Assembly: GCA_963749495.1 (NCBI GenBank)
Contig: CAVVMW010000028.1
Coordinates: forward strand, 39,271 to 103,270
Reading direction: 5' to 3'
DNA from: an uncultured bacterium
GTDB taxonomy: Bacteria > Verrucomicrobiota > Verrucomicrobiia > Limisphaerales > UBA8199
Length of the DNA stretch: 64,000 nt
Part shown: piece by piece, positions 190 to 61,169 of the stretch
Position numbering within the stretch: position 1 is the stretch's first letter
Layout: the number at the start of each line of letters is the position of its first letter
Made by a program: the position numbers and the translations under genes
The notes under the pieces: model-generated
What the model saw: only the letters and a program-made list of their open reading frames with translations
Told to the model about the DNA's origin: nothing
Database searches by the model: none

Positions 190-350
190 ACGGACCACGA
201 AAGAACGGGCTTTGGCTCGCGGCCCAAAGGGCCGGCAGAGCCCAGCCCAGGGCTGAGGCCGCCAGGCCGATGCCCTGGGTACAGGGCCAGCGAAATCAAT
301 CGCGCCCTGAGAGGGCGCAAGACTCTGGCGCCCCTTCAGGGGAATGGCGC

Positions 351-701
351 TTAGTTAGTGCCTAAAACTTTAGCACTGAGGCGCTTGCGTCGATGGGGAT
401 GAGGTGCCCTCCGGAAGATGATTATTCGGGACAGCCGCTCCATGTCCCGTAACAGCCCTCGCACCTGCCGGTAGCGGTTAACGGCTTGGCGCATCTGCTC
501 GAACTGTTCCTGGGTCAGTGAGACGGTCACCGTCTTCTGGGCGACTTTGCGCGTCCATTGGTAGCCGGCACCTCCGCCGGAGCGCCGCGTGCGGTCTTGC
601 ACCGAGCCCTGGCTCAGGTAGCCTATTTGGCCCAAACGGCGCCGCAACTGCTCGTATTGCCGCTGCCAGGAGGCGGTGCCCTTACCCCGATTTTTGTTCA
701 T
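351..701 (-). CDS. IS-borne small basic protein, DUF6788-like (116 aa)
   Basis: MNKNRG...LGQIGYLSQGSV...YQWTRKVAQKTVTVSLTQEQFEQMRQAVNRYRQVRGLLRDMERLS; intact in both IS copies; stop codon lies within the TIR. Confidence 0.75.
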   Translation of the reverse strand: MNKNRGKGTASWQRQYEQLRRRLGQIGYLSQGSVQDRTRRSGGGAGYQWTRKVAQKTVTVSLTQEQFEQMRQAVNRYRQVRGLLRDMERLSRIIIFRRAPHPHRRKRLSAKVLGTN

Positions 702-732
702 TGGCCTCAATTTTAGCTTGCAAGTCAAGCCT

Positions 733-754
733 TGTCCAGTATATATACTGGACA
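733..754. promoter_or_regulatory. perfect 22-bp palindrome between the divergent IS genes (putative operator)
   Basis: TGTCCAGTATATATACTGGACA overlaps the transposase ATG and the -35 of a TGGACA-N17-TAAAAT promoter-like motif for the small ORF. Confidence 0.65.
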
Positions 755-2231
755 TGCACACGCCCTTTTTCCTCCCCTGGCGCTCCTTCCTGGCTCCCCT
801 GGGACCCCGCCTCCAACACGCCGCCCAACCCCTGGGCCGCGCCACTCTCACCGCCATCGAGCAAAGTCTGGCTCCGGCCTTGCCCGCCGACCTCCTCCAA
901 AAGCCTGCCTCCGGACCCCACTGCCGACACCGGATCTTCTTCCAGGCCCGTTCCTTCTGGTGCTGGGTTTGGCAGATGTTCCAGGGCAACACCTCCTGCC
1001 GTGAGGTTGTGCGCCAAGTCCAGGCCCTGCTCGGCCTCCTGGAAGAGCCCCCATTGATGAAAACACCAGCGCTTACTGCCAGGCCCGGGCCAATCTATCC
1101 TTGGGCCTGTTGGAGAAGGCATTCAGCGCCAGCGCTTTAAGCGCCCTCAAGCAAGCCCCCGCCCAAACCCTGCTCCAGGGCCGGCCCATCAAGTTTGCCG
1201 ACGGCTCGACCGTGCGGTTGGAGGACACCCCTGCAAACCGCGCCCAATTTCCTCCCTCCTCAAACCAACACTCCCGTCCGGGCTTCCCCACCCTCAAGAC
1301 ACTGGTGCTCTTCGACCTGGCCAGCGGCGCGGTCCTGGCCCGAGCCACCAGCAGCCTCAAGGTGGCTGAAACGCGCCTGTTGATGAGCTTGGGCCAGCAC
1401 GTCCAGCCCGGCGACATTCTGGGCGGGGACCGCGCTTATGGCCTTTATGTCATGATGCACTGGGCCAAGGGCTTGGGCGCCGATCTCTTTGCGCGGCTCA
1501 ACGCCCGCTCCCGCCGGGTGGACTTCCGCAAGGCCATCAAAAAGCTCGGCCCCAACGACGCGGTGTTCCTGTGGCACAAACCCAAAGCCCCTTCCAAGCT
1601 GCTCACCCCCGAAGAGTGGGTCCAAGTGCCCGATACGATGGAGGTGCGCCTCATCCACATTCGGATTGAGCGGCCAGGCTTTCGCACCCGAGAACTAACG
1701 GTCGCAACCACCCTGCTGGACCCTGAGTTGTACCCAGCCCAGGAGATCCTGGCCGCCTTCCTCAAGCGCTGGCGCCTGGAGATGTGCCTGGATGATTTGA
1801 AAACCACCTTGCAGATGGAACAGCTCAAATGCCGCAAGCCCGAGGGGGTGGAAAAGGAGTTGCTGGTCTTCTTGCTGACCCACAATCTGCTACGCTGGAT
1901 CATGGGCCAGGCCGCCAAAGCCGGCGAGGCGGACCTGGAGCGGATCAGCTTCACCGGCACAATGCACGCCTTCCGGCAGTGGACCGTCGCGCTGGTGCAG
2001 GTGCGCGGACCCGGCAAACTCTCCAAACAAAAGCGCCTGTGGCAACTGTTGCTGTGGATCGTGGCAGCGGATTTGGTGCCGGAACGTCCCGGGCGGCAGG
2101 AACCCCGGGCCGTCAAAAAGAGAAGCAAATACCCGCGCCTGACCAAGCCCCGTGACCAGTATGTCGAACGGTGGAGCCGTAACAAGCGCCGCCGGGTTCA
2201 GCGCGCAAAAAAACATGCCTCGCTAAACTAA
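754..2231 (+). pseudogene. IS4-family DDE transposase, frameshifted (1-bp loss in C-run at about 1048-1052)
   Basis: Motifs DGSTV, GDRAY, KRWRLEMCLDDLK, RPGRQEPRAVK; copy 2 has CCCCCC where this copy has CCCCC. Confidence 0.85.
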
Positions 2232-2436
2232 GCGCCATTCCCCCTTCAGGGCAGCGGGGTCCGCCTCTGCAACGAAACCCAGGGCATCGGCCTGACGGCC
2301 TCAGCCCTGGGCTAGGTTCTGGCGGCCCGTCGGGCCACGGCGAGGCGCACGGCGGTCACATGCTTTAGCCTTTAGCGTTTAGCCTTTAGCAGCCAGGGGC
2401 TAGGCGCCCCTGGCTGCTTGGATTTTGCGGACAGGC

Positions 2437-32869: not shown

Positions 32870-33137
32870 AGGGCCGAAGGCCTGCAATGTGAGAGCCTGG
32901 GCTGGAGCGAGTCCGACGAGCGGAGGCCCAGGTCAACCACCGTCGCGAAGGTCCCCAGCCCTGTAAGATTCACCCCTCATGTCCCAACCTCCGGCCGACA
33001 CCCTTGTTCGCCTCGTCTTCAGCACCAAAGCCCTCTTTCGCCCCTACAGGGCGGAGGAAACATCTCGTTCGCCCCTTACCTGGGGCTGCGCGCTGCGCGC
33101 TTCACCCCAGGCTTTCACATTGCGGGCCTTCGGCCCT
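32870..33137. repeat. REP-like element, uninterrupted relative of the IS4 copy 2 host element
   Basis: agggccgaaggcc...ggccttcggccct ends; contains cgCCCCTACAGGGc at 33041-33051. Confidence 0.82.
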
Positions 33138-33778: not shown

Positions 33779-33964
33779 GTCCCGGAGGGACACATGAGAA
33801 TAGCCCTATGCTTCAGCATTGGGATGGCGTGCCCCGAAACGGCCCAGTCCCGAAGGGACGGGTGAGCGGCCCGCCATTTTCAGCCGTCCCTTCGGGACTG
33901 GACCGCCTCGGCCGCAGCACCCAACGCTGAAGCGTTGGGCTATTCTCAGGCATCCCTCCGGGAT
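33779..33964. repeat. REP-like element (GTCCCGNAGGGAC family)
   Basis: gtcccggagggac..gagaatagccc / gggctattctc..catccctccgggat with inner gtcccgaagggac and gtcccttcgggac. Confidence 0.8.
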
Positions 33965-34004
33965 GAAAACAAGCACCTCCGTGGCCGGCGGTATGCCCCT
34001 CTTT

Positions 34005-56317: not shown

Positions 56318-56390
56318 GACCTTTGCCGCGGCCTTTGTCGCAACAGAGCCAACCCGACAAAGGCTCCGACAAAGGTTGCGACAAAGGTCG
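56318..56390. repeat. CGACAAAGG-based 12-mer repeats (related copy at about 58668-58694)
   Basis: cgacaaaggctc cgacaaaggttg cgacaaaggtcg preceded by inverted cctttgccgcgg cctttgtcgc. Confidence 0.7.
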
Positions 56391-56638
56391 TGCCGGGCGC
56401 ATGCGGACACCGCCCCCGCCGGGCGCAACGGGATGGGAGGGCGCCTTTGCTCGGACGCATTCCGGCGTCGGTCTCCGAAGGCGCCCCAGGGCCGAAGGCC
56501 CGTCATGTGATAGCCCAGGCTGGAGCGGAGCGGAGGCCTGGGTAAGCCAAGCCCAGCGAAAACCTCCCTGGCCTGCTAAGGCCGGGACCTGTTGCCCAGG
56601 GATTCGGGCCTTGTCGCGCCCCTACAGGGGAATGGCGC

Positions 56639-58117
56639 TTAGTTTAGCGAGGCATGTTTTTTTGCGCGCTGAACCCGGCGGCGCTTGTTACGGCTCCACC
56701 GTTCGACATACTGGTCACGGGGCTTGGTCAGGCGCGGGTATTTGCTTCTCTTTTTGACGGCCCGGGGTTCCTGCCGCCCGGGACGTTCCGGCACCAAATC
56801 CGCTGCCACGATCCACAGCAACAGTTGCCACAGGCGCTTTTGTTTGGAGAGTTTGCCGGGTCCGCGCACCTGCACCAGCGCGATGGTCCACTGCCGGAAG
56901 GCGTGCATTGTGCCGGTGAAGCTGATCCGCTCCAGGTCCGCCTCGCCGGCTTTGGCGGCCTGGCCCATGATCCAGCGTAGCAGATTGTGGGTCAGCAAGA
57001 AGACCAGCAACTCCTTTTCCACCCCCTCGGGCTTGCGGCATTTGAGCTGTTCCATCTGCAAGGTGGTTTTCAAATCATCCAGGCACATCTCCAGGCGCCA
57101 GCGCTTGAGGAAGGCGGCCAGGATCTCCTGGGCTGGGTACAACTCAGGGTCCAGCAGGGTGGTTGCGACCGTTAGTTCTCGGGTGCGAAAGCCTGGCCGC
57201 TCAATCCGAATGTGGATGAGGCGCACCTCCATCGTATCGGGCACTTGGACCCACTCTTCGGGGGTGAGCAGCTTGGAAGGGGCTTTGGGTTTGTGCCACA
57301 GGAACACCGCGTCGTTGGGGCCGAGCTTTTTGATGGCCTTGCGGAAGTCCACCCGGCGGGAGCGGGCGTTGAGCCGCGCAAAGAGATCGGCGCCCAAGCC
57401 CTTGGCCCAGTGCATCATGACATAAAGGCCATAAGCGCGGTCCCCGCCCAGAATGTCGCCGGGCTGGACGTGCTGGCCCAAGCTCATCAACAGGCGCGTT
57501 TCAGCCACCTTGAGGCTGCTGGTGGCTCGGGCCAGGACCGCGCCGCTGGCCAGGTCGAAGAGCACCAGTGTCTTGAGGGTGGGGAAGCCCGGACGGGAGT
57601 GTTGGTTTGAGGAGGGAGGAAATTGGGCGCGGTTTGCAGGGGTGTCCTCCAACCGCACGGTCGAGCCGTCGGCAAACTTGATGGGCCGGCCCTGGAGCAG
57701 GGTTTGGGCGGGGGCTTGCTTGAGGGCGCTTAAAGCGCTGGCGCTGAATGCCTTCTCCAACAGGCCCAAGGATAGATTGGCCCGGGCCTGGCAGTAAGCG
57801 CTGGTGTTTTCATCGATGGGGGGCTCTTCCAGGAGGCCGAGCAGGGCCTGGACTTGGCGCACAACCTCACGGCAGGAGGTGTTGCCCTGGAACATCTGCC
57901 AAACCCAGCACCAGAAGGAACGGGCCTGGAAGAAGATCCGGTGTCGGCAGTGGGGTCCGGAGGCAGGCTTTTGGAGGAGGTCGGCGGGCAAGGCCGGAGC
58001 CAGACTTTGCTCGATGGCGGTGAGAGTGGCGCGGCCCAGGGGTTGGGCGGCGTGTTGGAGGCGGGGTCCCAGGGGAGCCAGGAAGGAGCGCCAGGGGAGG
58101 AAAAAGGGCGTGTGCAT
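56639..58117 (-). CDS. IS4-family DDE transposase (492 aa)
   Basis: Uninterrupted ORF from MHTPFF; DDE motifs as in copy 1. Confidence 0.9.
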   Translation of the reverse strand: MHTPFFLPWRSFLAPLGPRLQHAAQPLGRATLTAIEQSLAPALPADLLQKPASGPHCRHRIFFQARSFWCWVWQMFQGNTSCREVVRQVQALLGLLEEPPIDENTSAYCQARANLSLGLLEKAFSASALSALKQAPAQTLLQGRPIKFADGSTVRLEDTPANRAQFPPSSNQHSRPGFPTLKTLVLFDLASGAVLARATSSLKVAETRLLMSLGQHVQPGDILGGDRAYGLYVMMHWAKGLGADLFARLNARSRRVDFRKAIKKLGPNDAVFLWHKPKAPSKLLTPEEWVQVPDTMEVRLIHIRIERPGFRTRELTVATTLLDPELYPAQEILAAFLKRWRLEMCLDDLKTTLQMEQLKCRKPEGVEKELLVFLLTHNLLRWIMGQAAKAGEADLERISFTGTMHAFRQWTIALVQVRGPGKLSKQKRLWQLLLWIVAADLVPERPGRQEPRAVKKRSKYPRLTKPRDQYVERWSRNKRRRVQRAKKHASLN

Positions 58118-58169
58118 GTCCAGTATATATACTGGACAAGGCTTGACTTGCAAGCTAAAATTGAGGCCA

Positions 58170-58520
58170 ATGAACAAAAATCGGGGTAAGGGCACCGCCT
58201 CCTGGCAGCGGCAATACGAGCAGTTGCGGCGCCGTTTGGGCCAAATAGGCTACCTGAGCCAGGGCTCGGTGCAAGACCGCACGCGGCGCTCCGGCGGAGG
58301 TGCCGGCTACCAATGGACGCGCAAAGTCGCCCAGAAGACGGTGACCGTCTCACTGACCCAGGAACAGTTCGAGCAGATGCGCCAAGCCGTTAACCGCTAC
58401 CGGCAGGTGCGAGGGCTGTTACGGGACATGGAGCGGCTGTCCCGAATAATCATCTTCCGGAGGGCACCTCATCCCCATCGACGCAAGCGCCTCAGTGCTA
58501 AAGTTTTAGGCACTAACTAA
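58170..58520 (+). CDS. IS-borne DUF6788-like protein
   Basis: Identical to 351-701. Confidence 0.75.
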   Translation: MNKNRGKGTASWQRQYEQLRRRLGQIGYLSQGSVQDRTRRSGGGAGYQWTRKVAQKTVTVSLTQEQFEQMRQAVNRYRQVRGLLRDMERLSRIIIFRRAPHPHRRKRLSAKVLGTN

Positions 58521-58730
58521 GCGCCATTCCCCCTTCAGGGCGCAGAGATTGATGTGCTCGCAACCTGGGCCTCCGCTCGCAAGCTCGCTCCAGCCCAGGC
58601 TGTCACATCTCGGGCTTTCAGCCCGAGGAAGCGCGCACGCCCGGGGGCAGTGTTCGAATGCGCCCGGTTGCGACAAAGGCCGCGACAGAGGTTTGGCACC
58701 GGAGCCTCCGCGCTAATTTTGCCCGCCGTT

Positions 58731-60743: not shown

Positions 60744-60879
60744 ACTCGGCGAATCCGGCTGCGCACCCGCGCCGCCGGCTGGCCTCATCCTTCTCTTGGA
60801 CGGAGAAGTGGGCCGTTTGGAGGGCGGGCCTTGCTGCCGGGCCCCGGACGCGATGCGTCGGTCAAACGGCCATGACGAG

Positions 60880-61039
60880 CACAACCAAGCCGGTATCCTG
60901 GCTTCGGGTCTTGGAACCTTGCTCCCGCCTTCCCGGTCTTGCCCGATCGAGGACAAACCAGTGGCCTTGGGAGTTTGTAACCCGTTACAGTGGCGCAACC
61001 GTCCCCGATTCTCACGGGGTTCCCTGACGCCTGGCTGTG
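60880..61039 (-). ncRNA. cobalamin (B12) riboswitch
   Basis: Minus strand AGGGAA-CCCCGTGAGAATCGGGG-ACGG-TTGCGCCACTGTAA...GCCACTGG...CCGGGAAGGC...AAGCCAGGATACC; P1 CACAGCCAGG/CTTGGTTGTG. Confidence 0.9.
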
Positions 61040-61169
61040 TTTTTTCAAAGAACACCCCCTGCTTACGCCCGGCCAAGCGATTTGCCAAGAAAAATCGAGC
61101 GCAGGTCGAGGCGGGGGACCCACGACAGCAATCCTCGGGTGCGGGATGGAACCGGCCGTGCGTGCTCTG

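Follow-up and report, generated by a model that had tools for sequence, protein, structure and literature searches.

What places two copies of an insertion sequence (IS) at the same 11-bp site of a palindromic repeat is the question raised by a 64,000-nucleotide stretch of an uncultured member of the Verrucomicrobiota (contig CAVVMW010000028.1, positions 39,271 to 103,270), referred to here as the window. A first-pass annotation had proposed that an IS4-family element targets the hairpin core of REP-like repeats by sequence or structure and uses these repeats as safe harbours. Based on a census of the genome and of related elements, we consider it likely that this is an IS4-subgroup element which inserts site-specifically, by means of a symmetric complex acting on duplex half-sites at REP cores.

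A two-gene element of the IS4 family

The window contains two inverted copies of a two-gene IS4-family element, here called subfamily A, which are 99.8% identical (342-2240, plus strand, 1899 bp, and 56630-58529, minus strand, 1900 bp; two mismatches and one gap between copy 1 and copy 2) and are both located between ORFs. The terminal inverted repeat is perfect over 15 bp, and this end, GAATGGCGCTTAGTT, occurs four times in the window (342; 2226, minus strand; 56630; 58515, minus strand) compared with 0.07 occurrences expected by chance. Copy 1, whose left and right terminal repeats lie at 342-356 (plus strand) and 2226-2240 (minus strand), is defective, as its transposase gene (754-2231, plus strand) is frameshifted by a 1-bp deletion in a C run near 1058-1066. 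Copy 2 has both ORFs intact and encodes a transposase of 492 aa (P0001; 56639-58117, minus strand) recognised by Pfam DDE_Tnp_1 and an NCBIfam IS4-family model. The second gene is a small ORF encoding a 116-aa protein assigned to Pfam DUF6788 (351-701, minus strand, in copy 1; P0002, 58170-58520, plus strand, in copy 2), which in copy 1 points outward and has its stop codon within the left terminal repeat. A perfect palindrome, CCAGTATATATACTGG, lies between the divergent ORFs of copy 1 (736-751) and may serve as an operator or promoter region.

The 11.37-Mb genome encodes two subfamily A copies, namely those of the window, and nine copies of a sister element, subfamily B, with element sizes of 1887-1900 bp across both. 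Subfamilies A and B share the same ends and a left portion of 440 bp that is ~89% identical (87-93%), whereas their transposases are only ~47% identical, and their alignment is a mosaic, with 87-93% identity in columns 1-400 and 48-73% in the remainder. The B copies differ from each other at only 0-21 of 1888 positions. Subfamily A is represented by a single intact copy and carries F in place of Y in the YREK motif; judged from these sequences, its present activity is unproven.

The transposase scores 163.5 bits against the NCBIfam IS4-family model NF033592 (cut-off 115), matches DDE_Tnp_1 with E = 2.9e-12, and shares 31-37% identity with the nearest annotated plasmid genes, which are labelled 'IS4 family transposase'. 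The DDE positions of the copy 2 protein are D150, D226 and E343 and its YREK positions F336-R339-E343-K350; in an alignment of 10 transposases, D226, R339, E343 and K350 are invariant and D150 and Y336 nearly invariant, with F336 in subfamily A. A profile built from these 10 sequences gave only a weak match to the Tn5 transposase, in the YREK region (E = 0.19), a phmmer search of the transposase against PDB sequences returned no match at E <= 1, and a pattern search of genome contigs with the transposase gave 28 matches, none of which was confirmed. The family membership proposed by the first-pass annotation, that of an IS4-family DDE element, is borne out by the IS4 model, DDE_Tnp_1 and the DDE/YREK columns. 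With regard to the subgroup, the ends GAATGGCGCTTAGTTA, including the left terminal repeat of copy 1, match the IS4-subgroup consensus -AATR--------WTW, and the 11-bp duplication described below falls in the subgroup range of 10-13 bp, as both are given in the accessible text of the subgroup description (PMC2266710). The element exceeds the 1400-1650 bp and single ORF of the IS4 subgroup, a size that is typical but not strictly required, because it carries the extra divergent DUF6788 ORF. These sequence features place the element among the DDE transposons of the IS4 family, in the IS4 subgroup.

A dyad-centred duplication in REP-like foldbacks

Both window copies are flanked by an 11-bp duplication of the form CCCCT(T/A)CAGGG, as the first-pass annotation had noted. 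The duplication of copy 1 is perfect, with CCCCTTCAGGG on both sides (331-341 and 2241-2251), and that of copy 2 reads CCCCTACAGGG at the window-left side (56619-56629) and CCCCTTCAGGG at the window-right side (58530-58540), a single mismatch at the central position. An inversion between the two window copies was rejected as the source of this mismatch, since the flanks of copy 1 match each other and no reciprocal hybrid is found. The motif CCCCTWCAGGG occurs five times in the window (331, 2241, 33041, 56619 and 58530; 0.07 expected), the one occurrence away from the copies being the previously reported unoccupied site at 33041-33051, within the target CGCCC-CTACA-GGGCG (33039-33053) of another foldback repeat. 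Across the 11.37-Mb genome the 11-mer occurs 75 times on both strands, and chance therefore fails to explain the pattern, which removes the concern that the site might simply be common.

All 11 genomic copies have an 11-bp duplication (nine perfect, two with one mismatch), a length backed both by an insertion into a non-palindromic site, with the unambiguous repeat ACCTGACCGGG, and by comparison with empty sites. Empty sites rebuilt by script from the flanks match between 14 and 69 intact paralogous repeats for each of the 10 palindrome sites, and one paralogous gene for the off-target site; every intact paralogue has a single copy of the 11-mer. Ten of the 11 copies are positioned on the dyad of CGCCC-N5-GGGC(G), with CCC+N5+GGG duplicated, and these are oriented six one way and four the other. 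Under random insertion, the probability of at least 10 of 11 copies at such sites is ~3e-47. The eleventh copy disrupts an SdhB-like gene at the non-palindromic site gaggACCTGACCGGGcgcgg.

The palindromes hit by the element belong to three unrelated families of ~220-bp foldback repeats that have a common core of only 15-25 bp. Within one family the foldback arms are 78-96% alike, the flanks of the insertions are unique beyond ~110 bp, and single-strand folding of the foldbacks yields -106 kcal/mol (261 nt) and -111.5 kcal/mol (236 nt). Copy 1 is inserted in a family-1 foldback (arms at approximately 206-330 and 2252-2345) that also contains an unoccupied twin mini-palindrome, GCGCCC-TGAGA-GGGCGC (302-318), and copy 2 in a family-3 foldback, an arm of which comprises an Acido-Lenti-1 (RF01687) hairpin module (56488-56542, minus strand). 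Elsewhere in the genome, an IS200-like Y1_Tnp gene (G000:C4:428180-428632; Pfam 76.2 bits; 49.6 against the NCBIfam IS200 model, below its cut-off of 55) is located between two inverted arms of a family-1 foldback and is bordered by GCGCCC-TGACA-GGGCGC and GCGCCC-CTTGA-GGGCGC. Each of these arms has ~123 matches in the genome, and blastn aligns them with an intact family-1 member at 87-88% identity over 106 and 119 bp. Because inverted copies of the palindrome flank this IS200-like gene, the family-1 palindromes are REP-like in the strict sense, a tyrosine transposase link that applies to family 1 only. The genome-wide census, with 10 of 11 copies placed identically within one type of mini-palindrome, supports the proposed targeting of REP-like repeats.

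This distribution could in principle reflect random insertion followed by survival in harmless repeats, or passive spread inside foldbacks mobilised by a tyrosine transposase, and we give this almost no credence. The sole copy within a gene is the youngest, having no differences from another copy, and would fit the purging of harmful insertions. However, selection could not explain why 10 insertions share one base position of a 15-17-bp core in 220-bp repeats, and the two IS subfamilies are found independently in the same repeat type. Moreover, the repeats that carry the copies come from three families and resemble each other at 78-96%, compared with at least 98.9% among the IS copies; this divergence and the three repeat families rule out passive spread and a survival-only bias. 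Site specificity is therefore a property of the element, as read from fixed copies already filtered by selection. Since the only off-target copy is both young, being identical to another copy, and in a gene, the intrinsic specificity may be below 10 of 11.

What reads the target

Most likely, a transposase complex holding both IS ends reads the duplex (G)CGCCC-N5-GGGC(G), each protomer recognising one of two half-sites whose spacing is fixed. The joints between IS ends and target strands would then lie 3 bp inside each arm with an 11-bp stagger, which would duplicate CCC+N5+GGG, and insertion would occur in either orientation because the target site is symmetric. As the palindrome is the REP-type hairpin core that forms the apex of the ~220-bp foldbacks, nearly all insertions would fall in non-coding repeats and the element could multiply with little harm to its host. 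Such a safe-harbour benefit is plausible, as the first-pass annotation had suggested.

The unoccupied sites of the genome bear on how the palindrome is recognised. There are 189 unoccupied CGCCC-N5-GGGCG sites, and 97 with the strict 6-bp arms, GCGCCC-N5-GGGCGC, compared with 12.6 expected by chance. The hit loops give no demonstrable preference for sequence, as all 10 read YTNCA or TGNAR but so do 70 of the 97 free strict sites. The same arms occur 11-16 times each with spacers of 3, 4 or 7 nt, whereas with a 6-nt spacer there are 233 palindromes (6-bp arms) or 335 (5-bp arms), none of which is occupied. Assuming that N5 and N6 sites are equally usable, the probability of no N6 insertion is 5e-5, although the N6 palindromes differ in loop sequence too, so that spacing and structure are not cleanly separated by this comparison.

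Alternatively, the transposase or a host factor could read the extruded hairpin or cruciform of the REP palindrome and integrate at its loop, which we regard as unlikely. Each of the 10 on-target sites is the GC-rich core of a hairpin that caps a long, strongly folding foldback, and the cuts fall symmetrically on either side of the loop, each 3 bp into the stem. In a congeneric genome (G003), all 11 copies of a relative for which both ends were found are located in GSC-N4-GSC hairpin cores, and their duplication, centred on the dyad, drops to 10 bp with the 4-nt loop, as if measured from the stem. Against such a mechanism, the 233 palindromes that combine identical 6-bp arms with a loop of 6 nt have never been used, and the off-target site is unable to form the hairpin yet retains the right half-site GGGCGC. 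It would also depart from what is known of Tn5 and Tn10, whose IS4-family DDE enzymes capture duplex targets with symmetric consensus sequences (for Tn10, the hotspot GCTNAGC). The specificity claimed by the first-pass annotation is thus supported by 10 of 11 copies, and of its two options the evidence favours recognition of sequence and spacing over that of a pure hairpin; the choice between duplex and extruded hairpin, which rests on one off-target site and the N6 palindromes, is not settled.

A further candidate for the target selector is the DUF6788 protein, as the left module common to A and B could explain how two ~47% identical transposases come to use one site. The shared 440 bp at 87-93% identity, DUF6788 proteins that are ~90% identical between A and B, and the retention of the ORF in every relative examined are in line with this possibility, which we nevertheless find very improbable. 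Targets go with the transposase tree, in which A, B and a relative from genome G030 form one clade with 98/98 support among 10 transposases, all three targeting CCC..GGG palindromes, whereas near-identical 'GYVQDRGPGAGGPCYQWTRKVKAKTVSVALS'-type DUF6788 proteins accompany at least four different targets. DUF6788 matches number 47 across the genome and are spread over at least five further families of mobile elements, among them DDE_Tnp_1_4, DDE_Tnp_1 and a large serine recombinase, and four DDE or unassigned families that bear DUF6788 hit varied non-palindromic sites. The AlphaFold2 model of the protein (pLDDT 85.6) predicts a helix, a three-stranded sheet and a long helix; Foldseek returned nothing for it at E <= 0.001 and VIA-align only generic helical hairpins (Z <= 6.3), so that it is uninformative in this respect. 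Our search for literature on DUF6788 returned none. DUF6788 was rejected as target selector since the target follows the transposase tree and the DUF6788 type does not follow the target. Target choice thus tracks the phylogeny of the transposase.

Relatives and known REP-associated elements

Relatives in other genomes use other 10-12-bp sites. In G003, the strict palindrome GCCGGC-N4-GCCGGC occurs 113 times compared with 4 for the control. The flanks of relatives L005 and L007 are inverted rather than direct, which IS-mediated inversion or recombination would explain, those of L002, L010, L012 and L025 are unrelated, and for L006 and L023 the script probably paired the ends wrongly. The targets recorded in this group are CCC-N5-GGG here, GSC-N4-GSC in the congener and other 11-mers elsewhere. 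We tentatively suggest that the GAATGGCNCTTA-ended, DUF6788-bearing IS4-subgroup clade might carry DDE transposases that, by protein alone, are almost absolutely specific for sites of 10-17 bp and have been repeatedly re-tuned to the REP hairpin core of the host. If so, nature would have supplied, in this clade, a set of site-specific transposases with altered targets, and comparison among them could locate the residues that read the target.

Most DDE insertion sequences are loose in their choice of target, and to our knowledge elements directed to a single defined site by neither an RNA guide nor a dedicated targeting protein are few. Such single-site elements are well suited to studying how transposases recognise their target. 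The present genome offers a clean natural experiment, in which two 47% identical transposases use one 15-17-bp palindrome and leave untouched more than 200 look-alikes with a spacer longer by one base, and to which the differing sites of the relatives, following the transposase tree, add further cases. It also presents RAYT-type REP hairpins as sites where other mobile elements land, in a phylum far from the enterobacteria, pseudomonads and rhizobia of the first descriptions.

The first-pass annotation had named precedents for REP targeting in the IS3 and IS110 families only; both exist, but the IS4 family has one as well, ISRm22 (PMC1525189, available text). All copies of ISRm22 in Sinorhizobium meliloti 1021 are reported in REP, at the axis of palindromy of a conserved palindromic consensus, in the accessible parts of PMC1525189 and PMC2266710. 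Like ISRm22, the present element is an IS4-family DDE element at REP dyads with some imperfect duplications, which for ISRm22 were ascribed by the authors to recombination between copies (PMC1525189, same text). Compared by description, it differs in subgroup, ISRm22 belonging to IS4Sa (De Palmenaer et al. 2008, PMC2266710, excerpted), and in its direct repeats, which are 11 bp here and 6 bp in ISRm22. With the IS4 subgroup (type element IS4, E. coli), for which PMC2266710 notes a 'spectacular' specificity, it shares the end consensus, direct repeats of 10-13 bp and the YREK motif, but not the typical length of 1400-1650 bp, measuring 1887-1900 bp with the DUF6788 ORF.

Similar to IS10/Tn10 and IS50/Tn5, a symmetric transposase complex would prefer a symmetric target consensus within the duplicated sequence, which is 9 bp in those elements. 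However, their preference, described as palindromic for Tn5 in the available portion of PMC1525189, is loose with many usable sites, whereas the element described here uses a 15-17-bp palindrome almost exclusively and an 11-bp stagger. IS1397 and ISKpn1 of the IS3 family are DDE elements with experimentally established specificity for REP (palindromic units), for which the transposases appear responsible (PMC1525189, as accessible); by description they differ in their two-ORF frameshift transposase, family and duplication length. In the IS110 family, all copies of IS621, ISPpu9, ISPpu10 and ISPa11 are placed at one position of the host REP (PMC1525189, text as available). IS110-family elements employ a DEDD recombinase and a bridge or seek RNA guide and lack a DDE-type duplication, according to the accessible text of PMC11208160 and PMC11187229, whereas the present element shows no sign of an RNA guide. 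With 10 of 11 copies on the dyad, it falls among the REP-recognising IS of 'type 1 association' (Tobes and Pareja 2006). This kind of specificity has already been described for the IS4 family, to which the element adds one member and no new principle.

Element architecture and a sister subfamily

Four copies of the end motif GAATGGCGCTTAGTT are present in the window, where chance predicts 0.07; they delimit two elements at 342-2240 (copy 1, 1899 bp) and 56630-58529 (copy 2, 1900 bp, inverted), which differ by two mismatches and one 1-bp gap. The coordinates and sequences in the first-pass annotation were borne out. The transposase frame of copy 1 is broken by a 1-bp deletion, so that the intact transposase gene of the pair is that of copy 2 (56639-58117, minus strand). 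Its 492-aa product, P0001, scores 163.5 bits against the NCBIfam IS4-family model (cut-off 115 bits) and also passes Pfam DDE_Tnp_1, confirming the proposed IS4-family DDE element. An alignment of P0001 with nine relatives shows conservation of the Y(2)R(3)E(6)K motif and of the candidate DDE residues D150, D226 and E343. The YREK tyrosine is found in 9 of the 10 sequences and is replaced by Phe at residue 336 in subfamily A, to which both window copies belong. A profile built from this alignment had a weak match (E = 0.19) to the part of Tn5 transposase that contains YREK. Divergent from the transposase gene is a 116-aa ORF (Pfam DUF6788, E = 4.8e-14) that ends within the left terminal repeat; the intergenic region contains a perfect palindrome of 16 bp, CCAGTATATATACTGG. 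The window also holds a cobalamin riboswitch (60871-61049, minus strand; Rfam RF00174, 76 bits).

A blastn search of the host assembly (11.37 Mb, 31 contigs, the window being C28:39271-103270) with copy 2 recovered the two window copies as the only members of subfamily A, together with nine further loci whose similarity is largely confined to nt 1-469 (88.5-89.3% identity). These loci are full elements of 1887-1888 bp, here subfamily B, with ends near-identical to those of A (GAATGGCACTTA...TAAGCGCCATTC) and 0-21 differences among themselves in 1888 positions. Their transposase is intact (488 aa) in six copies, frameshifted in three, and about 45-47% identical to that of A (tblastn, 45-46% over 486-491 aligned residues). 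Alignment columns 1-400 are 87-93% identical between A and B, whereas the remainder is 48-73% identical, with the break near column 444, a few codons inside the transposase gene. The high-identity left ~440 bp (window 342-800 compared with contig C6 from 867182 onward) comprises the left end, the DUF6788 gene, the intergenic palindrome and the first transposase codons. Such a mosaic suggests that the left module was exchanged between two old lineages not long ago.

Insertion sites and target recognition

The 11-mer CCCCTWCAGGG occurs five times in the window (0.07 expected); four occurrences adjoin the two elements and the fifth, at 33041, is unoccupied, as had been claimed. The duplication is perfect at copy 1 and imperfect at copy 2, where the two sides read CCCCTACAGGG and CCCCTTCAGGG. 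The genome-wide census upheld the proposed association with a single mini-palindrome, since 10 of the 11 A and B elements lie in (G/C)CGCCC-N5-GGGC(G)(C/G), with CCC+N5+GGG as the 11-bp duplication. The arms are perfect GCGCCC/GGGCGC at seven of these ten sites, CCGCCC/GGGCGG at two and GCGCCC/GGGCAG at one (window copy 1). Read in IS orientation, the loops are TGNAR in six and YTNCA in four, and thus both insertion orientations are used. For copies that have passed through selection, as all those surveyed have, the probability of at least 10 of 11 random insertions falling on 199 N5 positions in 11.37 Mb is ~3e-47. Unoccupied sites number 189 for CGCCC-N5-GGGCG (133 expected from half-site frequencies) and 97 for 6-bp arms (12.6 expected), of which 82 and 70, respectively, have YTNCA or TGNAR loops.

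The eleventh element, at C1:326566, is inserted in gaggACCTGACCGGGcgcgg, its boundaries being set as G...C by an unambiguous 11-bp duplication. This site retains the right half-site GGGCGC without a matching left arm, and the gene disrupted encodes an SdhB/FrdB-like iron-sulfur subunit with a paralogous operon on contig C6. The copy has zero differences from another copy. We infer, in line with the first-pass annotation, that REP repeats serve as a 'safe harbour' for the element, which is consistent with the sole genic insertion also being the youngest copy.

When the empty versions of the ten palindrome sites were rebuilt by script, each matched between 14 and 69 intact paralogous repeats that span the junction and carry the 11-mer once. 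The repeated unit is only ~220 bp, with unique flanks beyond, and belongs to family 1 at six sites (78-96% pairwise identity), family 2 at two (88-89%) and family 3 at two (81%). Because these three families have only a 15-25-bp core in common, the element moved by itself, and passive carriage of the IS by the repeats is rejected. On these sequence comparisons, the 11 insertions are independent events.

Palindromes with the same arms and a 6-nt spacer are abundant in the host genome (233 with 6-bp arms, 335 with 5-bp arms), yet none of the 11 A and B copies is inserted in one (P = 5e-5 on the assumption that N5 and N6 sites can be used equally well). Most of these 6-nt-spacer sites belong to a mini-palindrome family of ~200 copies, GCGCCC-GTCCYC-GGGCGC. 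The most likely mechanism is that a two-fold symmetric transposase complex captures duplex target DNA, each protomer reading one CGCCC half-site, with symmetric cuts 3 bp inside each arm. Such duplex half-site reading fits the palindromic target, the symmetric cuts, the use of both orientations, the strict 5-nt spacer and the half-site kept at the off-target insertion. Its main rival is recognition of an extruded target hairpin. The suggestion of a sequence- or structure-specific element stands as regards site specificity (10 of 11), with sequence and spacing favoured over structure.

Imperfect duplications are found at two of the 11 elements, copy 2 of the window (A against T) and C6:289051 (A against C). 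In each, the mismatch is at the middle base of the loop, which is also where the sites vary most. A difference confined to this base would result if IS copies lodged in different REPs had recombined (IS-IS recombination), an explanation that Tobes and Pareja put forward for three of nine ISRm22 copies (PMC1525189). Gene conversion among repeats would leave the same central-base difference. A simple inversion with copy 1 was rejected as the cause of the copy 2 mismatch, since the flanks of copy 1 match.

Family-1 repeats are near-perfect foldbacks of ~210-220 bp, with predicted single-stranded DNA folding energies of -106 (261 nt) and -111.5 kcal/mol (236 nt). Their apex carries two inverted 17-bp mini-palindromes ~9 bp apart, and either is used, the first by C6:867182 and the second by C22:63447 and window copy 1. 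Among 24 Pfam Y1_Tnp matches in the host genome, the gene at C4:428180-428632 (locus C4:428040-428760) lies exactly between two family-1 foldback arms, beside the palindromes GCGCCC-TGACA-GGGCGC and GCGCCC-CTTGA-GGGCGC. It encodes a 150-aa IS200-like tyrosine transposase scoring slightly below the NCBIfam IS200 cut-off. The gene occurs once in the genome, and two 142-bp fragments from its 5' end remain at C6:677021 and C21:610206. The arms match an intact family-1 member at 87-88% identity over 106 and 119 bp (blastn), and each has ~123 blastn hits in the genome. Because a tyrosine transposase gene between repeat arms is the layout of REP-associated tyrosine transposases (RAYTs), the earlier description of the target as REP-like is justified for family 1, to which the RAYT link is limited.

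Short tandem motifs flank both IS-bearing repeats of the window outside the foldback arms, in inverted orientation on the two sides: GGCTAAA-type motifs around copy 1 (160-195 and 2360-2392) and GACAAAGG-type motifs around copy 2 (56320-56395 and 58665-58690). GACAAAG-type motifs also occur beside one copy of a serine-recombinase element family and inside that family's ends. Rfam Acido-Lenti-1 matches lie at 33920-33965 (plus strand) and 56488-56542 (minus strand), the latter within an arm of the family-3 repeat holding copy 2; judged by this context, the 'sRNA' motif here is a repeat module.

Relatives and the DUF6788 module

Matches at E <= 1e-20 were found in 20 of 61 related genomes, the host included, and all full-length relatives examined have GAATGGCNCTTA ends and the DUF6788 ORF. 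We surveyed the flanks of 18 elements from other genomes whose two ends were paired by script. Perfect 11-bp direct repeats flank seven (AGGMCTGACAC twice in G026, GGCTCTGATCK twice in G003, and GGATCAGACCC, GGGACTGACAC and CCCCTTCCGGG), a 12-bp repeat, TCCCGCGAGGGA, flanks one in G030, and one has flanks matching at 10 of 11 positions. Flanks are inverted copies of each other in two and unrelated or doubtful in seven. In the two with inverted flanks, L005 (G018) and L007 (G001), the 11 bp on either side are reverse complements without a direct repeat, as expected if inversion had occurred between oppositely oriented copies in like sites.

A distant relative in the congeneric genome G003 (38% transposase identity, ~1902 bp) retains both ends in 11 of 12 copies examined. 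Each of the 11 is inserted in a C-GSC-N4-GSC-G hairpin core; both orientations occur, and the duplication is of 10 bp with the dyad at its middle (perfect in 10, a single mismatch in one). The strict form of this core, GCCGGC-N4-GCCGGC, has 113 occurrences in G003, compared with four for a reversed-pattern control, and is often found as inverted pairs ~26 bp apart.

A maximum-likelihood tree of 10 transposases places A, B and the G030 element, all with CCC..GGG palindromic targets, in one clade (support 98/98), and a second clade unites four elements (100/99), three of them beside GKGTCAGKCC-type sites. Clades with like targets indicate that target choice follows the transposase. DUF6788 was considered as target selector because A and B have both this module and the target in common. 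The protein probably selects no target, given that the target tracks the transposase tree instead, that one DUF6788 sequence type occurs with at least four different targets, and that the target sites of other DUF6788-bearing families, DDE and unassigned, are varied and not palindromic.

DUF6788 has 47 matches in the host genome; beyond the 11 IS4-type copies it occurs in at least five further multicopy mobile-element families of 3 to 12 copies each (example loci C4:252565-255708, C4:763544-765835, C4:716578-719084, C23:513712-515547 and C12:501634-503606). By Pfam, a DDE_Tnp_1_4 transposase is carried by one family, a DDE_Tnp_1 transposase by another and a large serine recombinase by a third (3.1 kb); two further families have no Pfam match. 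This small uncharacterised protein is thus common to mechanistically unrelated mobile elements. A 1.8-kb DUF6788-bearing element without a Pfam-recognisable transposase has 12 copies, including tandem pairs ~9 bp apart at C23:38260-41931 and C2:62305-65981. The predicted fold (pLDDT 85.6) gave no informative structural match, and a literature search on the family returned no paper mentioning it. Our guess is that DUF6788 regulates the element.

Relation to known IS4-family elements

Within the IS4 family, Tn10 has a symmetric target hotspot, with a looser preference. The symmetric-target principle of Tn5 and Tn10 resembles that proposed here, but their preferences are looser; a palindromic target preference is cited for Tn5 (PMC1525189). 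For the IS4 subgroup, an end consensus of -AATR--------WTW, direct repeats of 10-13 bp and a typical size of 1400-1650 bp are given (PMC2266710). The ends and the 11-bp duplication described here fit these values, whereas the elements are longer than typical.

Tobes and Pareja (2006) named five families with members that recognise REPs, IS4 being one of them; all copies of ISRm22 lie in REPs at the axis of palindromy (PMC1525189). De Palmenaer et al. (2008) assigned ISRm22 to subgroup IS4Sa and noted 'spectacular apparent insertion specificity' in some IS4-subgroup members (PMC2266710). The present element is therefore not a new kind; it adds a RAYT-linked target (family 1) in a different bacterial lineage, a target common to two co-resident transposases that are about 45-47% identical, a clean spacing control (N5 versus N6), and targets that shift across the whole clade.
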